Program-made: the position numbers and the translations under genes
Notes under the pieces: model-generated
Database searches by the model: none
What the model saw: only the letters and a program-made list of their open reading frames with translations
Told to the model about the DNA's origin: nothing
Shown here: piece by piece, positions 1 through 7,000 of the stretch
How the letters are laid out: every line of letters begins with the position of its first letter
Numbering within the stretch: the first letter of the stretch is position 1
IMG/VR virus record: IMGVR_UViG_3300029828_000038
Coordinates: 1-19,305 of that record
DNA from: a virus
Taxonomy: Duplodnaviria > Heunggongvirae > Uroviricota > Caudoviricetes
DNA: 19,305 nt
Direction: 5' to 3' (one strand)

Positions 1-827
1 CCGGAAGTCTCTACCTGTTCTGTGGTCATCGCCTGGCATCTGATATCGAAATCATGATGCGTCAGCGCTTTAATGTGCTGAACCACATTATCTGGGCGAA
101 GCCGTCCGGACGCTGGAACGGATGCAACAAGGAAAGCCTGCGGGCGTATTTTCCGGCAACAGAACGCATTCTGTTTGCTGAACATTATCAGGGTCCATAC
201 CAGCCCAAAAATGACGGCTATGCGGCAAAGGGGCGCGAGCTAAAACAGCACGTCATGGCCCCGCTGATTTCTTACTTTCGTGATGCGCGTGAATCACTGG
301 GAATAACGTCAAAACAGATAGCGGAAGCCACCGGAAAGAAAAACATGGCTTCGCACTGGTTTGGTACCAGTCAGTGGCAGTTACCAAACGAGGGTGATTA
401 CAACAAATTGCAGGCGTTGTTTGCGCGTGTTGCGGCAGAAAAACATCAGCGCGGGGAACTGGAAAAGCCACACCACCAGCTGGTCAGCACATACAGTGAA
501 CTGAACCGGCAATATGCCAGCCTGCTGGAAGAGTACAAATCCCTGCGGCGTTATTTTTCCGTATCGGCAGCCGTTCCTTATACGGATGTCTGGACGCATA
601 AACCCGTGCAGTTTTATCCGGGCAAACATCCCTGTGAAAAACCGGCGGATATGCTCCGGCAAATAATCAATGCCAGCAGTCGCCCTGGTGATTTGGTTGC
701 TGATTTTTTTATGGGGTCTGGCTCAACAATAAAAGCGGCACTTTCACTGGGACGCCGTGCGATTGGCGTGGAACTGGAGGAAGAGAGATTTAATCAGACT
801 GTAAGTGAAATAAAAAATAATCGTTAA
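1..827 (+). CDS. DNA methyltransferase, N6-adenine/N4-cytosine (PF01555-like) family; 5' end lies outside the window
   Basis: Reading frame is open from window position 3 with no stop, through the track ORF 54..827. The protein carries HPCEKP (HPTQKP-like) followed by DLVADFFMGSGST (FxGxG AdoMet motif) and GRRAIGVELEE, the characteristic C-terminal half of this family. The DPPY-type motif would be upstream of the window. Confidence 0.75.
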   Translation, partial: GSLYLFCGHRLASDIEIMMRQRFNVLNHIIWAKPSGRWNGCNKESLRAYFPATERILFAEHYQGPYQPKNDGYAAKGRELKQHVMAPLISYFRDARESLGITSKQIAEATGKKNMASHWFGTSQWQLPNEGDYNKLQALFARVAAEKHQRGELEKPHHQLVSTYSELNRQYASLLEEYKSLRRYFSVSAAVPYTDVWTHKPVQFYPGKHPCEKPADMLRQIINASSRPGDLVADFFMGSGSTIKAALSLGRRAIGVELEEERFNQTVSEIKNNR

Positions 828-1426
828 ATACGGATAACATTATTTCTGAAATTAAGAAATAATAGAAATATATACATATGTTTACGAATATTAACGTGAA
901 TTTCCATTGAAAAGAGAACAGGCATCATTAGTATTAATTTGAGTTCCGAGGGTATACCCCGAAGAACCAGTGCCGACTTAGTTCAGCAATCAGAGCAGGT
1001 GGCTTGTAACATCAGGTCACCAGTTCGATTTCTCAGTCGGTACCGTATGCGGGTCGATTCCCGCTGTTCCAGAAGTAACGAGATAGGTAGTTTTGGGCGC
1101 TGGCACATTAAATATGTGGGATGTTTCACCCTCTCTCCTTACCGCATCCAGCCTGTAATGAAAGTTATTTGTTACGGTACCAGTGCCATCTTTTTACAAT
1201 AGCGGAATGGTGCATTATTGGTAGATATTTTGTATTTCATGGCAGGGTCGGTGATGCATCATTCCGGTGTTGTAAATAACACCGCCGGGGTGTTCCTCAG
1301 TGCGGGGGTGGTTCAAGAGTCGGTTTAGCGGGAAGCCACAGTATCCATACAGTATGGAGTACTTCGGGAGGCACCCGACGCCCTGGTTTTACTACAATAA
1401 AAATAACTTATCTTCTGCATTGACCA

Positions 1427-1452
1427 GCCGCCCCCACCGGGCGGTTTTTTTA
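1427..1452 (+). terminator. Intrinsic terminator-like hairpin plus T-tract
   Basis: Stem CCGCCC (1428-1433) / GGGCGG (1439-1444) with loop CCACC, followed by T7 (1445-1451). No coding sequence overlaps it. Confidence 0.55.
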
Positions 1453-1536
1453 TTCTGAATTCCCCAAAAAAAGAAAACACGGACACTGATAATGCCCGTG
1501 TGGCAATGCCATGTAAGTCAGCGATGAATATGGCGC

Positions 1537-1570
1537 AAAAAAAAAGCGCGGCTGTCGGATTAAAGCCGCG
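1537..1570 (-). terminator. Intrinsic terminator-like hairpin plus U-tract on the minus strand
   Basis: A9 at 1537-1545 on the + strand (U9 following the hairpin on the minus strand). Stem CGCGGCT (1547-1553) / AGCCGCG (1564-1570) with a 10-nt loop. Convergent with the + strand terminator at 1427..1452. Confidence 0.4.
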
Positions 1571-1829
1571 GGACAAAGTCCGTGAAGAAGAATAAGCATC
1601 GGTCTCCTCCAGGAGACGAGTTGATATTACTAAGCTTTAAAAATGGTTTAAATCCCCGTATTAACCTTAATTTCAGATAAGCTTTATTTCATTTCTTCGC
1701 GCCACGCCCGGCGCATATCAAAAAGCCACAGAGCCTTTCAGGGGTGAGCTTACGGGATGGTCAGTGTGACTTTCTCTGTGGGCTGGTCACCCCGGGGCGC
1801 AGGCTCACCCACTAAAAGGAAAAGTCACG

Positions 1830-2255
1830 ATGTTTGGTATTTTCAAAAAGAAAACCCGCAAGGCCATTACTGAAGTAAAGAAAATGGAGAACCGCGACGC
1901 AGTGGAGGCGACCGTCTGGGGTGCGTATTCCATCGCATTCGCCGACGACACCTGTGACGCGAAAGAAGTCGCGGTACTGGAGAAAACCATTGCAGCACTT
2001 CCTGCCTTTGCGCCGTTCTCCGGTGAGATTGCACAAATGAGTGCAAATATCCGCGCCCGTTATGAAGCGTCGCCGCGCTCTGCCAATGCTGAAGCCCTTC
2101 GTCAGCTGGCTGACGTGGCAGGTACTGATGACGCAGTTAATGTGCTGTGCCTGTGTCTGGATATCGCTGACCAGGATGGCATTGGTCCGGATGAAGAAGC
2201 ACAACTCAAGAAAATTGCTCAGGCACTGCAGTTGCCGCTGGAGCAGTACCTGTGA
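1830..2255 (+). CDS. TerB-like (tellurite-resistance TerB family) protein, phage cargo gene
   Basis: ATG at 1830 preceded by AAAGGAAAAG. The 141-aa product has the TerB-type acidic motif DIADQDGIGPDEEAQLKKIAQAL and predicted helical character. It sits between terminator-like hairpins, upstream of the lysis genes. Confidence 0.7.
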   Translation: MFGIFKKKTRKAITEVKKMENRDAVEATVWGAYSIAFADDTCDAKEVAVLEKTIAALPAFAPFSGEIAQMSANIRARYEASPRSANAEALRQLADVAGTDDAVNVLCLCLDIADQDGIGPDEEAQLKKIAQALQLPLEQYL

Positions 2256-2404
2256 AAAGTGCGCGCCTTGTGCTGGCTGCCATCCTGCTGTTTCTGGTAG
2301 TGGTGGTGGATTTCACCGGACGGCTGATGTCGGTGCTGGCAGATGGTGTGCTGGTGGCGATGGCGCTGGCCGTACTCCGGCCTTTACTGCGCAAATCTGA
2401 ATAA
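2252..2404 (+). CDS. Small hydrophobic two-helix membrane peptide (50 aa), translationally coupled to the TerB-like gene; not in the ORF track
   Basis: GTG at 2252-2254 overlaps the TerB stop TGA 2253-2255 (GTGA), with GGAG at 2240-2243 upstream. Hand translation: (M/V)KSARLVLAAILLFLVVVVDFTGRLMSVLADGVLVAMALAVLRPLLRKSE, stop TAA 2402-2404. Codons are CTG/GTG-rich. It falls below the apparent 60-aa cutoff of the track. Confidence 0.4.
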   Translation: MKSARLVLAAILLFLVVVVDFTGRLMSVLADGVLVAMALAVLRPLLRKSE

Positions 2405-2455
2405 CACCACACAAAAGGCATCTGCGGGTGCCTTTGACGGGGTGTTGTTTTTTAC

Positions 2456-2477
2456 GGGCCGCTGGTGGCCCTTTTTT
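2456..2477 (+). terminator. Intrinsic terminator-like hairpin plus T-tract upstream of the lysis genes
   Basis: Stem GGGCC (2456-2460) / GGCCC (2467-2471) with loop GCTGGT, then T6 (2472-2477). A second hairpin AGGCA/TGCCT lies at 2416-2433. Confidence 0.5.
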
Positions 2478-2495
2478 ATTTACAGGAGAAAAAGT

Positions 2496-2888
2496 ATGTC
2501 TGAACCCTTATCCGGTTCCGGCACGGCTGCGGCGCTCGGCGGGGCGACGGTATTCGGGCTGTTTACCGGAACGGATTTCGGGATTGTGTTTGGTGCGTTC
2601 GCCGGGGCGTTGTTTGTGGCAACGATGCCGCAGAAGATTTCAGCCTGGCGTGTGGCGGCACATTTTCTGGTGTCGTTCATTGTTGGTGTACTGGGGGCGC
2701 GTGTACTGTCAGCCTGGATTGCATCAAAAACAGGTTATGACGGTACATCTGCGGATGCACTGTGTGCGGTGCTGGTGGCGGTGGTGTCGGTGAAGATTCT
2801 GTCGTTCATCCACCAGCAGGATATCGCATCACTGGTGTCCGGCCTGTTCTCGCGCCTGCGGGGTGGAGGAGGCGGCAATGTTAAGTAA
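2496..2888 (+). CDS. Putative holin / lysis membrane protein (three predicted TM segments)
   Basis: ATG at 2496 preceded by ACAGGAGAAAAAG; this is the in-frame internal start of track ORF 2343..2888. The 130-aa product has three hydrophobic segments and a charged Gly-rich C-terminus, and lies immediately upstream of the endolysin. Confidence 0.55.
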   Translation: MSEPLSGSGTAAALGGATVFGLFTGTDFGIVFGAFAGALFVATMPQKISAWRVAAHFLVSFIVGVLGARVLSAWIASKTGYDGTSADALCAVLVAVVSVKILSFIHQQDIASLVSGLFSRLRGGGGGNVK

Positions 2889-3153
2889 CCTTCCCGGATT
2901 GCTGAATGTGGCGTTATGCACGGTTATCGTGCTGACGCTCTTTTTTTATCGTCGCCGTGATTCCAGACATAAACCGCTGATGTCATGGCTGGCCTGGCTA
3001 CTGATGCTGCTTTATGCCTTTGCACCACTCAGCTATCTGTGCGGTCGCCCGTTAGCGGCGAACTGGCTGGCGGTGGGGCTTAATCTGCTGTTCTGCGTGC
3101 TGGTGATACGTGCACGCGGGAACGTCACAAAAATCTTTCCAATGTTGAGGTGA
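2878..3153 (+). CDS. Second lysis-cassette membrane protein (holin/antiholin-like, about three TM segments)
   Basis: ATG at 2878 preceded by GGAGGAGG, overlapping the upstream gene by 11 nt. The 91-aa product is hydrophobic with basic loops (FFYRRRDSRHK). Its stop TGA 3151-3153 is 2 nt before the endolysin start. Confidence 0.5.
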   Translation: MLSNLPGLLNVALCTVIVLTLFFYRRRDSRHKPLMSWLAWLLMLLYAFAPLSYLCGRPLAANWLAVGLNLLFCVLVIRARGNVTKIFPMLR

Positions 3154-3155
3154 AT

Positions 3156-3533
3156 ATGTCGGGTAAATTCAGATTCAGCCGTCGCAGTGAAAAAAATCTG
3201 GAGGGCGTCAAACCACAGCTGGTTGCTGTCGTTCGCCGTGCGCTGGAGCTGACGGAGGTTGATTTCGGTATTACGGAAGGCCTGCGCAGTAAGTATCGCC
3301 AGAAACAGCTGGTTGCGGCAGGGAAAAGCCAGACCATGAACAGCCGCCACCTGACAGGTGATGCGGTGGATGTTGTGGCCTACATTGGCAGCCAGGTGTC
3401 ATGGGACTGGCCTCTGTACGAGAAAATAGCGCAGGCATTTAAGCAGGCTGCCGCAGAGCTGGGAACTACCATCGAATGGGGCGGTGAGTGGCGGTCCTTA
3501 AAGGACGGGCCTCACTTTCAGTTGAAACGCTGA
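3156..3533 (+). CDS. Endolysin, L-alanyl-D-glutamate peptidase (peptidase M15 / VanY-like, phage T5 Lys-like)
   Basis: ATG at 3156 with GAGGTG upstream. The 125-aa product has the T5-Lys-like pattern: KFRFS..SEKNL..VKPQL..RRALEL, the zinc-ligand motif SRHLTGDAVD, and C-terminal EWGGEW...DGPHFQL. Confidence 0.85.
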   Translation: MSGKFRFSRRSEKNLEGVKPQLVAVVRRALELTEVDFGITEGLRSKYRQKQLVAAGKSQTMNSRHLTGDAVDVVAYIGSQVSWDWPLYEKIAQAFKQAAAELGTTIEWGGEWRSLKDGPHFQLKR

Positions 3534-3547
3534 TAACCAGGTGTGTT

Positions 3548-3730
3548 ATGAGCAGAAAACACTGGACACACAGAATGCCGCGAACGGCGGCGAAATGGGC
3601 ACTGGTAGCGATACTGGTGCCTTTTTTATTGGTGGGATGCGTCAGCCTGGATAAGGCGCGCCAGCTTTTCGATACGGCTTCTCAGGTCTGCGAAATTGTT
3701 GACGGTGTTCGGCAGTGTCTGCAGAACTGA
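3548..3730 (+). CDS. Small outer-membrane lipoprotein, lysis-associated (spanin-like position)
   Basis: ATG at 3548 with AGGTG upstream. Signal peptide with basic n-region, hydrophobic core and lipobox LVGC. The mature part is 30 aa (CVSLDKARQLFDTASQVCEIVDGVRQCLQN), with Val at +2 and three Cys. It starts 14 nt after the endolysin stop. Confidence 0.6.
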   Translation: MSRKHWTHRMPRTAAKWALVAILVPFLLVGCVSLDKARQLFDTASQVCEIVDGVRQCLQN

Positions 3731-3901
3731 TCGCCCGTAAGAGCAGAATATTTTGCTGAAAAATGAAGGATGCGTCAGCGCCCGGAAAGCATGAAATTCT
3801 GTGTTTGCGGTCATTCAATAAAATAAATTCTTTCTTTCGCCGCGAATACTCAAATGTTGATCAGCGCCAGGTGCGGCGACGGGCTTCGATATCAGGAGAC
3901 G

Positions 3902-4180
3902 ATGATGGGAAAAACAGAAAACAAACCGATTTTAGTTGGTGTCGCGTCTATTCCGTTTAAGTTTGAACTGTCACAACTGGTGGAAGTATGCATCAGTGAT
4001 GAATGGGGTGAGGTTAAAGCTCGCGCTCAGTATGCAGATGGCGAAAACCAGTACTTGCTCCACTACAAAGCTGCTGATGGTCGTGCCACGACGGAGTGGT
4101 TTGGTGAATCAATGCTGGAAGCAACAGAAGATGCTCGTCATCCGGGCTGTCCGGTATTTGCCTTCATGAAATTACCGTAA
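3902..4180 (+). CDS. Hypothetical protein (92 aa, soluble), candidate cargo gene
   Basis: ATG at 3902 preceded by TCAGGAGACG. No TM segment or recognisable motif. It is preceded by a 170-bp AT-rich spacer and followed by the palindrome GTTACTGAGTAAC (4190-4202) and the hairpin GCAGCCC/GGGCTGC (4213-4235). Confidence 0.5.
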   Translation: MMGKTENKPILVGVASIPFKFELSQLVEVCISDEWGEVKARAQYADGENQYLLHYKAADGRATTEWFGESMLEATEDARHPGCPVFAFMKLP

Positions 4181-4262
4181 GGTGCGGTAGTTACTGAGTA
4201 ACAGGCATTACAGCAGCCCTTCAGTGAGGGGCTGCGATAATGCCGGTATTAAGGAGATTCCA

Positions 4263-4613
4263 ATGCCATCACGAATCCCCCGCGCATGCCGTAAGCGAGG
4301 TTGCGCAGGCACGACAACAGACAGCTCTGGCTACTGCGATAAACATCGGGGTGAAGGCTGGGTGCAGCACCAGCGCGGACTGAGCCGCCACCAGCGTGGC
4401 TATGGCTCAAAATGGACGGTGATTCGAGCCCGTATTCTGAAGCGCGATAAAGGTCTGTGTCAGTTGTGTCTGCGTGTCGGTGTGGTGCGCGAGGCGAAAA
4501 CTGTCGACCACATCATCCCGAAAGCACATGGCGGAACAGATGCAGACAGCAACCTGCAGAGTCTGTGCTGGCCCTGCCACAAAGCGAAAACAGCGCGCGA
4601 ACGAATCAGGTGA
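4263..4613 (+). CDS. HNH endonuclease (packaging-associated, HK97 gp74-like position)
   Basis: ATG at 4263 with AAGGAG upstream. The product has Cys-rich zinc-finger-like CRKRGCAG...CDKH and the HNH core DHIIPKAHGG...N...CWPCHKAKT. It lies directly upstream of the terminase small subunit. Confidence 0.85.
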   Translation: MPSRIPRACRKRGCAGTTTDSSGYCDKHRGEGWVQHQRGLSRHQRGYGSKWTVIRARILKRDKGLCQLCLRVGVVREAKTVDHIIPKAHGGTDADSNLQSLCWPCHKAKTARERIR

Positions 4614-4760
4614 TAATTATTCTCACTTGTGGGGAGGGGCGGGTAAAATCCCTGCAGCCCTGGCTGCTCAGTACCGCCGCCTGACCTTTCCTCGCATCGC
4701 CGCAGGTTCGAAAACTTTTTTTTGGGAATGCGATCAAACGATTGATAGGTAAAACCGATT
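4614..4760. other. Candidate cos / packaging-initiation region between HNH endonuclease and terminase small subunit
   Basis: A 147-bp non-coding gap with G-rich GGGGAGGGGCGGG, the hairpin GCAGC-CCTG-GCTGC, the GC block CCGCCGCCTGACC and a T9 run. The position matches the cos site of HK97-like phages. The exact cut site cannot be determined. Confidence 0.3.
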
Positions 4761-5243
4761 ATGTCAGGACCCCCGAAAACCCCGCCACGCCTGCATTTGA
4801 TACGAGGCAACCCATCAAAGCGCCCCGTTAAAGACCCCAAAAAAACCGCTAAAAAGGACGAAAAAGGTCTCCCTAAAATTCCGCAACATTTAGGGGCGCA
4901 GGGGAAGTACTGGTTCAGGCGAATGGCGGAAGAACTGAATGCGGAAGGGATCATTTCTCAGCTTGATGCGCGTGCACTCGAGTTGCTGGTGGAAGCCTAC
5001 ACCGAATACCGGCATCACTGCGAAATACTCGATGTTGAGGGTTATACCTACCGCACGGAAACGCAGAACGGTGATGTGCTGATTAAGGCACACCCGGCTG
5101 CTGCGATGAAAGCGGATGCCTGGAAGCGGATCCGGGCGATGCTTGCAGAGTTTGGTATGTCACCGGCAAGCCGGGCGAAAGTAAATACCGCCGGACCGGA
5201 TGATGTTGATCCGCTGGCGGAACTTTTAAAAGCGAGAGACTGA
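4761..5243 (+). CDS. Terminase small subunit, P27 family
   Basis: 160-aa product with a basic N-terminus (PKTPPRLHLIRGNPSKRP...) and the P27-family core YWFRRMAEEL...LDARALELLVEAY...HPAAAMKADAWKRIRAMLAEFGMSPASRAK. Its stop overlaps the large-subunit start (TGATG). Confidence 0.85.
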   Translation: MSGPPKTPPRLHLIRGNPSKRPVKDPKKTAKKDEKGLPKIPQHLGAQGKYWFRRMAEELNAEGIISQLDARALELLVEAYTEYRHHCEILDVEGYTYRTETQNGDVLIKAHPAAAMKADAWKRIRAMLAEFGMSPASRAKVNTAGPDDVDPLAELLKARD

Positions 5244-7000
5244 TGGCAAAAGTGGCTGACGGGATCCGCTACGCCGAACGTGTTGTTGCAGGAGAAATTG
5301 TCGCTGGCGAATTTGTCCGTCTGGCCTGCCAGCGTTTTCTTGATGATCTGAAGTACGGCGAAGAGCGGGGGATTTATTTCAGTGAACCCCGTGCGCAGCA
5401 CATCCTGAATTTCTACAAATTTGTGCCCCATGTAAAAGGGGCGCTGGCAGGCCAGCCCATTGAACTGATGGACTGGCATGTATTTATTCTCATTAATATT
5501 TTTGGTTTTGTCATTCCGCTGGTCAATGAAGAGACCAGGGAAGTTGTTATGCGCAGCGATGGCAGCGGACGTCCGGTGATGGTGCGCCGGTTCCGGACGG
5601 CGTACAACGAAGTCGCCCGTAAAAACGCAAAATCAACCCTGTCATCGGGTATCGGTCTGTATATGACGGGGGCAGATGGTGAAGGCGGGGCTGAGGTGTA
5701 TTCAGCCGCAACCACGCGTGACCAGGCCAGAATCGTGTTTGAAGACGCCAAAAATATGGTCAGAAAAGCCCGGTCGACACTCGGGCGATTGTTTGATTTC
5801 AACAAGCTGGCGATTTACCAGGAGCAGAGCGCATCAAAATTTGAACCGCTTTCTTCGGATGCAAACAACCTGGATGGTCTGAACATCCACTGCGCCATTA
5901 TTGATGAGCTGCATGCACATAAAACCCGCGACGTGTGGGACGTTCTGGAAACGGCAACTGGTGCCCGTCTGCAGTCCCTGTTATTTGGTATCACCACGGC
6001 TGGCTTTAACAAGGAAGGGATTTGTTACGAGCAACGCGATTACGCCATCAAGGTATTGCGTGGCTATAACAGTGACGTGGAGGGCGCGGTAAAAGACGAC
6101 TCTTACTTTGCGATCATTTACACGCTCGATGAGGGAGATGATCCGTTTGATGAAACGGTCTGGCAGAAAGCGAATCCCGGCCTGGGCATCTGTAAACGCT
6201 GGGATGATTTGCGTCGTCTGGCGAAAAAAGCGAAGGAGCAGGTTTCTGCGCGGGTGAATTTTTTCACGAAACACATGAATGTGTGGGTCACTGCCGAATC
6301 TGCCTGGATGGACATGATTAAGTGGGAGAAGTGCGAATACATTGCTCCACAGCATGAGCTGAAAACATATCCCATGTGGGTCGGTGTAGACCTTGCTCAT
6401 AAGATTGATATCTGTGCGGCGGCAAAACTCTGGCGAACCGATAACGGACATGTTCATGCTGATTTTAAATTCTGGCTCCCGGAAGGACGGCTGGAGCGGT
6501 GCTCGCGGCAGCAGGCAGAACTTTACCGGAAATGGGCGGAGATGGATAAGCTCATCCTGACGGATGGTGATGTTATCGATCATGCTCAGATAAAAAGTGA
6601 CTTACTGGAATGGATTGGTGGTGAAAACCTGAGGGAGCTGGGATTTGACCCGTGGAGTGCAATGCAGTTCAGTCTGGCTCTGGCTGAAGAAGGGATACCG
6701 CTGGTGGAAGTTCCGCAGACGGTCCGCAATCTGTCAGAGGCTATGAAGGAAACGGAATCACTGGTCTATGCCGGGCGTTTTCACCACAGCAATCACCCGG
6801 TCATGAACTGGATGATGTCTAACGTTACGGTAAAACCGGACAAAAACGACAATATCTTCCCGAACAAATCCACGCCTGAAGCCAAAATCGACGGTCCTGT
6901 TGCGATGTTTACAGCAATGAGCCGGATGCTGGTCAATGGCGGTGAACCGGAGCCGGATCTGTCTGAGCATCTGGTCAGCGTTGGTATTCGCTCGCTTTAA
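5243..7000 (+). CDS. Terminase large subunit (Terminase_1-like)
   Basis: 585 aa, size and position typical. ATPase-like N-terminal region and nuclease-like C-terminal region by pattern. Coupled to the small subunit. Confidence 0.9.

Follow-up and report, generated by a model that had tools for sequence, protein, structure and literature searches.

The closest described relative of the gene considered here is L33 of phage phiP27 (P27p33, NP_543085; phrog_1935). It occupies the same position, after the holins, an M15 endolysin and a 60-aa lipoprotein gene and before an HNH gene, cos and a P27-type terminase, and the same stem-loop lies 3' of it. The phiP27 protein reads through to the residues ...GAVVTE (98/99 aa; 115 aa in the annotation, which begins at a start further upstream), and phiP27 has about 470 nt more than the DNA analysed here between the endolysin and lipoprotein genes.

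A second point of comparison is provided by bor of phage lambda and the other lambdoid morons (the concept associated with HK97/HK022). The bor gene lies on the opposite strand, encodes a lipoprotein, has its own promoter and is expressed in lysogens. L33 resembles this class in being non-essential and variably present at the lysis/packaging junction; unlike bor, it is co-directional with its neighbours, cytoplasmic and, by a consensus scan, promoterless, and the hairpin behind it is not a canonical terminator.

The third comparison is structural. HspQ/YccV (PF08755; PDB 5ycq) is the product of a chromosomal heat-shock gene, whereas L33 is a phage late gene, and it has an insertion of about 15 residues between strands and a C-terminal tail that are both absent from L33. 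According to PMC9961632, which cites Puri and Karzai 2017, HspQ acts as a specificity-enhancing factor for Lon. Other small beta-barrels of the SH3-like, Tudor, chromo and KOW types (eL27, NusG/Spt5 KOW, MRG15, PsaE) bind RNA or methyl-lysine in contexts unrelated to L33, and have no significant sequence relationship to it.

Against this background, we analysed a 19,305-nucleotide stretch of viral DNA, here called the window. The reading that we favour, with a probability of about one half, is that it would carry a dispensable accessory gene of the L33 family, housed in a late-operon cassette and encoding a partner-binding barrel like that of HspQ, in the form of a truncated copy.

The locus and its gene

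The window covers the late region of a phiP27-like Escherichia coli prophage, and the genes that matter here all lie on the + strand:

54-827, + strand: N6/N4 DNA methyltransferase
1830-2255, + strand: TerB-like gene
2493-2888 and 2863-3153, + strand: two holins
3150-3533, + strand: M15 endolysin
3548-3730, + strand: 60-aa predicted lipoprotein (phrog_7528)
3902-4180, + strand: L33-family ORF, stop codon TAA at 4178-4180, product a predicted acidic HspQ/YccV-like beta-barrel
4263-4613, + strand: HNH endonuclease
4761-5243, + strand: P27-type small terminase
5243-7000, + strand: large terminase
from 7194, + strand: portal

Over segment 3400-4700, identity is 92.7% to phiP27 and 99.7% to a prophage in E. 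coli CEA224S, where all genes are co-directional from the antiterminator Q through the tail genes. Several details of the surroundings were recorded along the way. The TerB-like gene (141 aa; PF05099; phrog_632, 'tellurite resistance') fills the site between methylase and holin where phiP27 has stx2eA/B, and positions 1-5000 of the window hold no tRNA genes, while phiP27, CEA224S and E300082 carry tRNAs there. The lipoprotein, encoded directly 3' of the M15 endolysin, has the lipobox LVGC and three Cys in its mature part; no Rz-like inner-membrane spanin partner for it was seen in the lysis cassette, and its gene contains a terminator-like hairpin with a T-run at 3597-3622. Further downstream, positions ~4673-4685 are the counterpart of the annotated phiP27 cos (L001 5747-5756, CGCCCGCCCC) and read CCGCCGCCTG here, a difference that exists despite an HNH protein 99% identical to that of phiP27 (tblastn).

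An earlier note on this DNA, made from the letters alone, had described a soluble 92-aa protein with its own ribosome-binding site, and this description stands with one refinement. The ORF is present with an AGGAG Shine-Dalgarno sequence at 3894-3898, and in-frame ATGs at 3902 and 3905 would give products of 92 or 91 aa. The second ATG has the better spacing from the ribosome-binding site and is the start in the PGAP annotation and in most homologue calls, so that the product has either 91 or 92 aa. The protein is acidic (pI 4.9) and soluble by its composition, with a GRAVY of -0.24 and no hydrophobic segment.

Conservation, the lack of which the earlier note had named as grounds for refutation, is extensive. 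The protein matches the phrog_1935 HMM with an E value of 8.9e-51 (residues 2-92 against profile positions 1-91 of 116) and shares 86% identity with phiP27 L33. Its close homologues form 89 clusters from E. coli, Shigella, Salmonella and Yersinia, none of which carries a name, and a profile search recovered 699 representatives at E <= 0.001, many of them stand-alone proteins of ~60 aa that span residues 17-76. Across 57 distinct locus sequences, variable sites are distributed 22/18/42 over the three codon positions and dN/dS is 0.18-0.24. The cassette is present in 160-213 of 5,426 complete E. coli genomes, and L33-like genes also occur in other Enterobacterales, in a Neisseriaceae MAG and in Burkholderia phages. 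The ORF is a real, widely conserved and dispensable small phage gene of the phiP27 L33 family (phrog_1935). The gene already stands in databases as a hypothetical protein in many phages, and given its frequency in phages and E. coli genomes it is ordinary as an observation; nothing in the analysis suggests a new kind of system, and the ORF is a truncated member of a known, uncharacterised family.

Cassette boundaries and the exchangeable slot

The limits of the unit that carries the gene were drawn by comparing 80 viral loci and several genomes. The intergenic regions on either side divide as follows:

3731-3801, + strand: proximal spacer, part of the upstream 60-aa lipoprotein-gene block and not of the ORF cassette
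3802-3888, + strand: variable joint, swapped, replaced or mostly deleted in other prophages
3889-3901, + strand: left end of the conserved cassette, including AGGAG at 3894-3898; homology resumes at 3889
4181-4201, + strand: untranslated remnant of the ancestral C-terminus, read in frame by relatives as ...LP(E/K)GAVVTE*
4204-4244, + strand: conserved stem-loop of 7 + 10 bp with a 2x2 internal loop, closing the accessory slot

The non-coding gap before the ORF (3731-3901) is 171 nt long, in agreement with the 170-bp spacer of the earlier note; the AT-richness claimed for it is mild, with a GC content of 0.468 vs 0.526 for the window as a whole (ORF 0.466, lysis genes 0.553). Homology with loci L013, L011 and L054 and with E. 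coli W covers 3548 (or earlier) through 3801 and is lost beyond it, and homology to all L33-bearing loci resumes at 3889, only 13 nt before the ATG (at 3862 in L057, where 3802-3888 is mostly deleted). In L013-type loci, 630 nt that hold a pair of small ORFs (phrog_2571-like and phrog_4280) take the place of the joint, and in a third state its place is taken by a different sequence with a 35-aa ORF. The L013 insert (3359-3987), at the junction of lipoprotein gene and L33, encodes a 74/121-aa phrog_2571-like ORF and an 81-aa phrog_4280 ORF, the first of which starts at an ATG still kept in the window at 3763. The ribosome-binding site, by comparison, is near-invariant in 41 distinct upstream sequences, with a single locus having G for A at 3894.

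A scan of 3731-3901 for matches to the sigma-70 consensus found no promoter-like site. The region 3728-3910 has no significant RNA structure (z +0.27), and on this ground a structured RNA or riboswitch in the spacer was rejected.

Downstream of the ORF, what had been noted as a 7-bp hairpin turns out to be a 17-bp stem-loop (7 + 10 pairs) at 4204-4244. The minimum free energy of 4178-4262 as RNA is -34.9 kcal/mol (z -4.83; none of 200 shuffles was as stable). A terminator scan did not call the hairpin because no T-run follows it, and a search of the whole window against Rfam gave nothing at the gathering threshold, with only a chance-level match in 3500-4800. Pairing is conserved among loci (87% of cells paired vs 35-58% in slid controls), while covariation is not significant; double-sided changes are few and no more frequent than in shuffles, so we make no claim of RNA-level selection on the stem-loop.

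The distribution of the stem-loop is instructive. Homology between prophages ends directly 3' of it, with at least nine different downstream continuations, and this very element also stands behind the lysis genes in Salmonella phage Fels-1, which is without L33. Copies were located at 2508-2546 in L088 (Fels-1), 3001-3050 in L098 (E. coli W) and 3001-3055 in L099 (E300082). Standing at the close of the accessory region behind the lysis genes, it may mark a boundary between modules; its role could lie in the RNA, as a 3' stabiliser or weak terminator, or in the DNA exchange itself, as a recombination joint.

From the homology breaks on both sides, the unit is a ribosome-binding site and ORF in an exchangeable slot closed by a shared stem-loop; as far as the alignments define it, the mobile unit is a cassette of RBS, ORF and conserved stem-loop, promoterless by the consensus scan. 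The self-contained layout proposed in the earlier note is thus not supported: the cassette starts 13 nt before the ATG, the spacer contains nothing that resembles a promoter, and the stem-loop lacks a U-tract and is also found where the gene is absent. How, then, would the gene be expressed? Because the cassette is promoterless and lies in a co-directional late operon, Q-dependent late transcription is the simplest inference, and the Q-dependent late promoter most likely drives the gene by read-through, in one operon with the lysis and packaging genes.

A different possibility is that the gene is a moron in the full sense, a cargo gene that would be expressed in lysogens from an unrecognised promoter in the spacer, terminated at the stem-loop and of benefit to the host, for example in defence or exclusion. 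The gene is indeed present or absent between conserved flanks at a fixed site (E. coli W and E300082 carry a 35-aa ORF instead), its GC content is below that of its neighbours, a stable hairpin follows it and lambda bor lies at the analogous site. However, the consensus scan of 3731-3901 gave no promoter and the conserved cassette, from 3889, leaves the interchangeable upstream sequence outside; moreover, the hairpin lacks a U-tract and is not specific to the L33 gene, the protein has no PADLOC match, and P2-like phages carry the gene within their structural operons. We consider lysogen-expressed cargo unlikely. The idea of a second cargo gene, as first put forward, retains its accessory, exchangeable and lower-GC character and loses its own promoter and autonomy, and the likeness to bor is one of position, not of strand or lipoprotein nature: the L33 protein has no hydrophobic N-terminus, a GRAVY of -0.24 and a gene on the same strand as its neighbours.

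The favoured reading, a late accessory cassette, places the gene in a hypervariable slot at the far end of the lysis cassette, and other genomes illustrate how such a slot is used. In E. coli W and E300082, the lysis cassette, the lipoprotein gene and the proximal spacer are those of the window, after which the 35-aa ORF replaces L33 and is followed by the same stem-loop. This ORF (MWKPTGDKLITALIDGKPQY...ARLIRE, phrog_8025) lies at 2899-3006 in L098 and 2900-3007 in L099. The phrog_8025 peptide is homologous to the C-terminal tail of a 131-aa L33 variant, a relationship that suggests gene fusion or fission in the slot. The window's HNH/terminase module is absent from most L33-bearing loci, some of which have the lambda-type Nu1/A genes, and a tie between L33 and HNH or HK97-type packaging was rejected on this evidence. 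L33-like genes were also found in other positions:

Salmonella and Kluyvera lambdoid prophages: directly 3' of an Rz-like spanin gene
one P2-like group: directly 3' of lysB
other P2-like phages (Yersinia, Ewingella, ESSI2_ev040): between terminase gpM and head-completion gpL
a Neisseriaceae prophage: directly 5' of terS
Pseudocitrobacter: between methylase and holin
Burkholderia phages: among small genes, outside the structural and lysis clusters

By gene order, the theme that these positions share is one of junctions in late operons, with no fixed partner. The location between lysis and packaging modules that had been noted at the outset is therefore borne out as that of an accessory, exchangeable gene, and the lysis-to-packaging junction of phiP27-like and related prophages can be viewed as a slot for swappable small genes, closed by a stem-loop.

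The same map of positions bears on two functional proposals. In the first, L33 would be a packaging accessory whose barrel binds TerS, the HNH protein or phage DNA and aids cos recognition or cleavage. The gene lies upstream of terS, next to it or nearby, in lambdoid phages, directly upstream of it in the Neisseriaceae prophage and directly downstream of gpM in P2-like phages, and YccV was first described as a binder of hemimethylated DNA. On the other hand, L33 accompanies three terminase types that are unrelated to one another and can lie apart from terS (behind lysB in P2-like phages, in the methylase/holin interval in Pseudocitrobacter), E300082 does without it despite having the same HNH-TerS-TerL genes downstream, and the acidity of the protein is unfavourable for DNA binding. 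A packaging role appears quite unlikely to us on balance. In the second proposal, a cytoplasmic L33 would regulate the timing of lysis by acting on the holin, antiholin or spanin, as its place might suggest: in P2-like phages, and in lambdoid phages with either HK97-type or lambda-type packaging, L33 comes straight behind the final gene of the lysis set. Such a role is very unlikely, considering that L33 accompanies at least four holin families (PF05449, PF16931, PF05106, PF16080, PF04971) and endolysins that vary between M15 peptidase and lysozyme, that the gene lies in the head gene cluster of other P2-like phages, and that an unrelated 35-aa ORF can replace it.

The predicted barrel and its possible partners

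The earlier note had recognised no function in the sequence and had called for a profile search and structure prediction. These place the protein in the phrog_1935 family and give a predicted HspQ/YccV-like barrel, so that a fold with profile-level support can now be proposed. Scans of the ORF protein found no match in Pfam (E <= 0.1), in NCBIfam or in PADLOC (E <= 1). A Pfam scan of 98 family members gave five single-member matches at E ~0.003-0.01, judged to be noise, and a scan of 10 longer domain-containing proteins, made as a hunt for fusions, a single sub-threshold match to Lcl_C. A literature search on phiP27 L33 and on phage HspQ/YccV proteins found nothing relevant.

The structure predicted for L33 shows the fold of solved HspQ (PDB 5ycq). 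In a profile-profile comparison with hhalign, the L33 and HspQ alignments matched over 73 columns with an E value of 3.6e-5 and a probability of 71.4%, which is below the usual 90-95%, and the aligned region includes a common HP-x-x-P segment C-terminal to the barrel. Against the score of 33.5, reversed profiles reached 8.7 and 10.7, and 200 column shuffles averaged 10.9 (sd 2.5) with a maximum of 22.1. With HMMER, PF08755 matched neither the ORF protein (E <= 0.1) nor any of the 98 family members (E <= 0.01), and a profile search of PDB sequences returned nothing significant, the best being superoxide dismutase (E 0.1) and the MOF chromo-barrel (E 0.14). From the profile comparison, the L33 family is a probable remote homologue of HspQ and not a member of Pfam PF08755.

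The acidity of the window protein resembles that of HspQ (pI 4.5) and is a family property, the net charge of the core being negative in 90% of 98 members, which argues against simple nucleic-acid binding. L33 would be a small beta-barrel, acidic and cytoplasmic, with a remote relationship to HspQ/YccV, and most likely acts by binding a protein partner rather than nucleic acid. The description of HspQ and Lon is the only functional lead for L33, and one of pure analogy. Following it, the partner could be a host AAA+ protease such as Lon, which L33 would modulate or for which it would serve as a decoy late in infection, an extension that we regard as rather unlikely. Bolder still, L33 might be a late-made phage mimic of HspQ that binds Lon or another AAA+ protease, with the slot being a counter-defence or host-takeover hotspot in lambdoid prophages. 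Such a mimic would keep phage proteins from being degraded, or else would block abortive-infection or toxin-antitoxin responses that depend on Lon; we consider it improbable.

Several findings count against the favoured combination of accessory cassette and HspQ-like barrel, namely the lack of Pfam, NCBIfam and PADLOC matches, the hhalign probability of just 71%, the missing HspQ loop and tail, and the pseudogene call made by PGAP for the window copy. The frequent adjacency of L33 to the small terminase would equally suit a packaging role. The HspQ/YccV link nevertheless offers a large orphan phage family a structural lead that is amenable to testing, and should the link extend to function, it would suggest that phages manipulate host AAA+ proteolysis.

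The truncated C-terminus

The usual form of the family ends in ...LP(E/K)GAVVTE* and is 98 aa long. In the window copy, codon 93, which is GAA or AAA in relatives, has become TAA, so that translation stops six codons early and neither intact C-terminus is present (...LP[EK]GAVVTE or the 131-aa extended form). The ancestral codons GGT GCG GTA GTT ACT GAG TAA (G A V V T E stop) remain in frame after the premature TAA.

This remnant accounts for the palindrome GTTACTGAGTAAC of the earlier note, which is present at 4190-4202. Because the ancestral codons follow in frame, it consists of V-T-E-stop (GTT ACT GAG TAA) plus one base, and is a coding remnant rather than a separate flanking motif. Among relatives the 13-mer differs at synonymous sites, and 6-nt inverted repeats are common around it (14 in 700 nt). 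As coding sequence with synonymous-site variation and a chance-level frequency, the palindrome was rejected as a protein-binding site.

Does the premature stop mean that the gene is dead? A decaying pseudogene with no current function in this prophage would fit the departure from the 98-aa norm and the PGAP annotation of CEA224S, where the same ORF is flagged as incomplete, 'missing C-terminus' and a pseudogene; a nonsense truncation is also seen in the 131-aa variant, cut to 116 aa. Against this, just six residues are gone, all of them outside the conserved core and in the lowest-confidence (low pLDDT) part of the model, the ORF has no frameshifts, and the truncated allele recurs in several loci (L009, L010, L016, L047) that differ by 2-16% elsewhere. 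According to the model, the nonsense mutation removes the last six residues and leaves the predicted barrel intact. Loss of function is therefore no more than possible; outright decay we hold to be unlikely, and a truncated member of the accessory family remains the preferred description. The trimming of the 131-aa variant to 116 aa is itself recurrent, arising by a TCG -> TAG change in nine viral loci (the L067-L078 group, at about 4370; for example, 4372-4374 in L067), and represents a second, independent C-terminal truncation in the L33 family.
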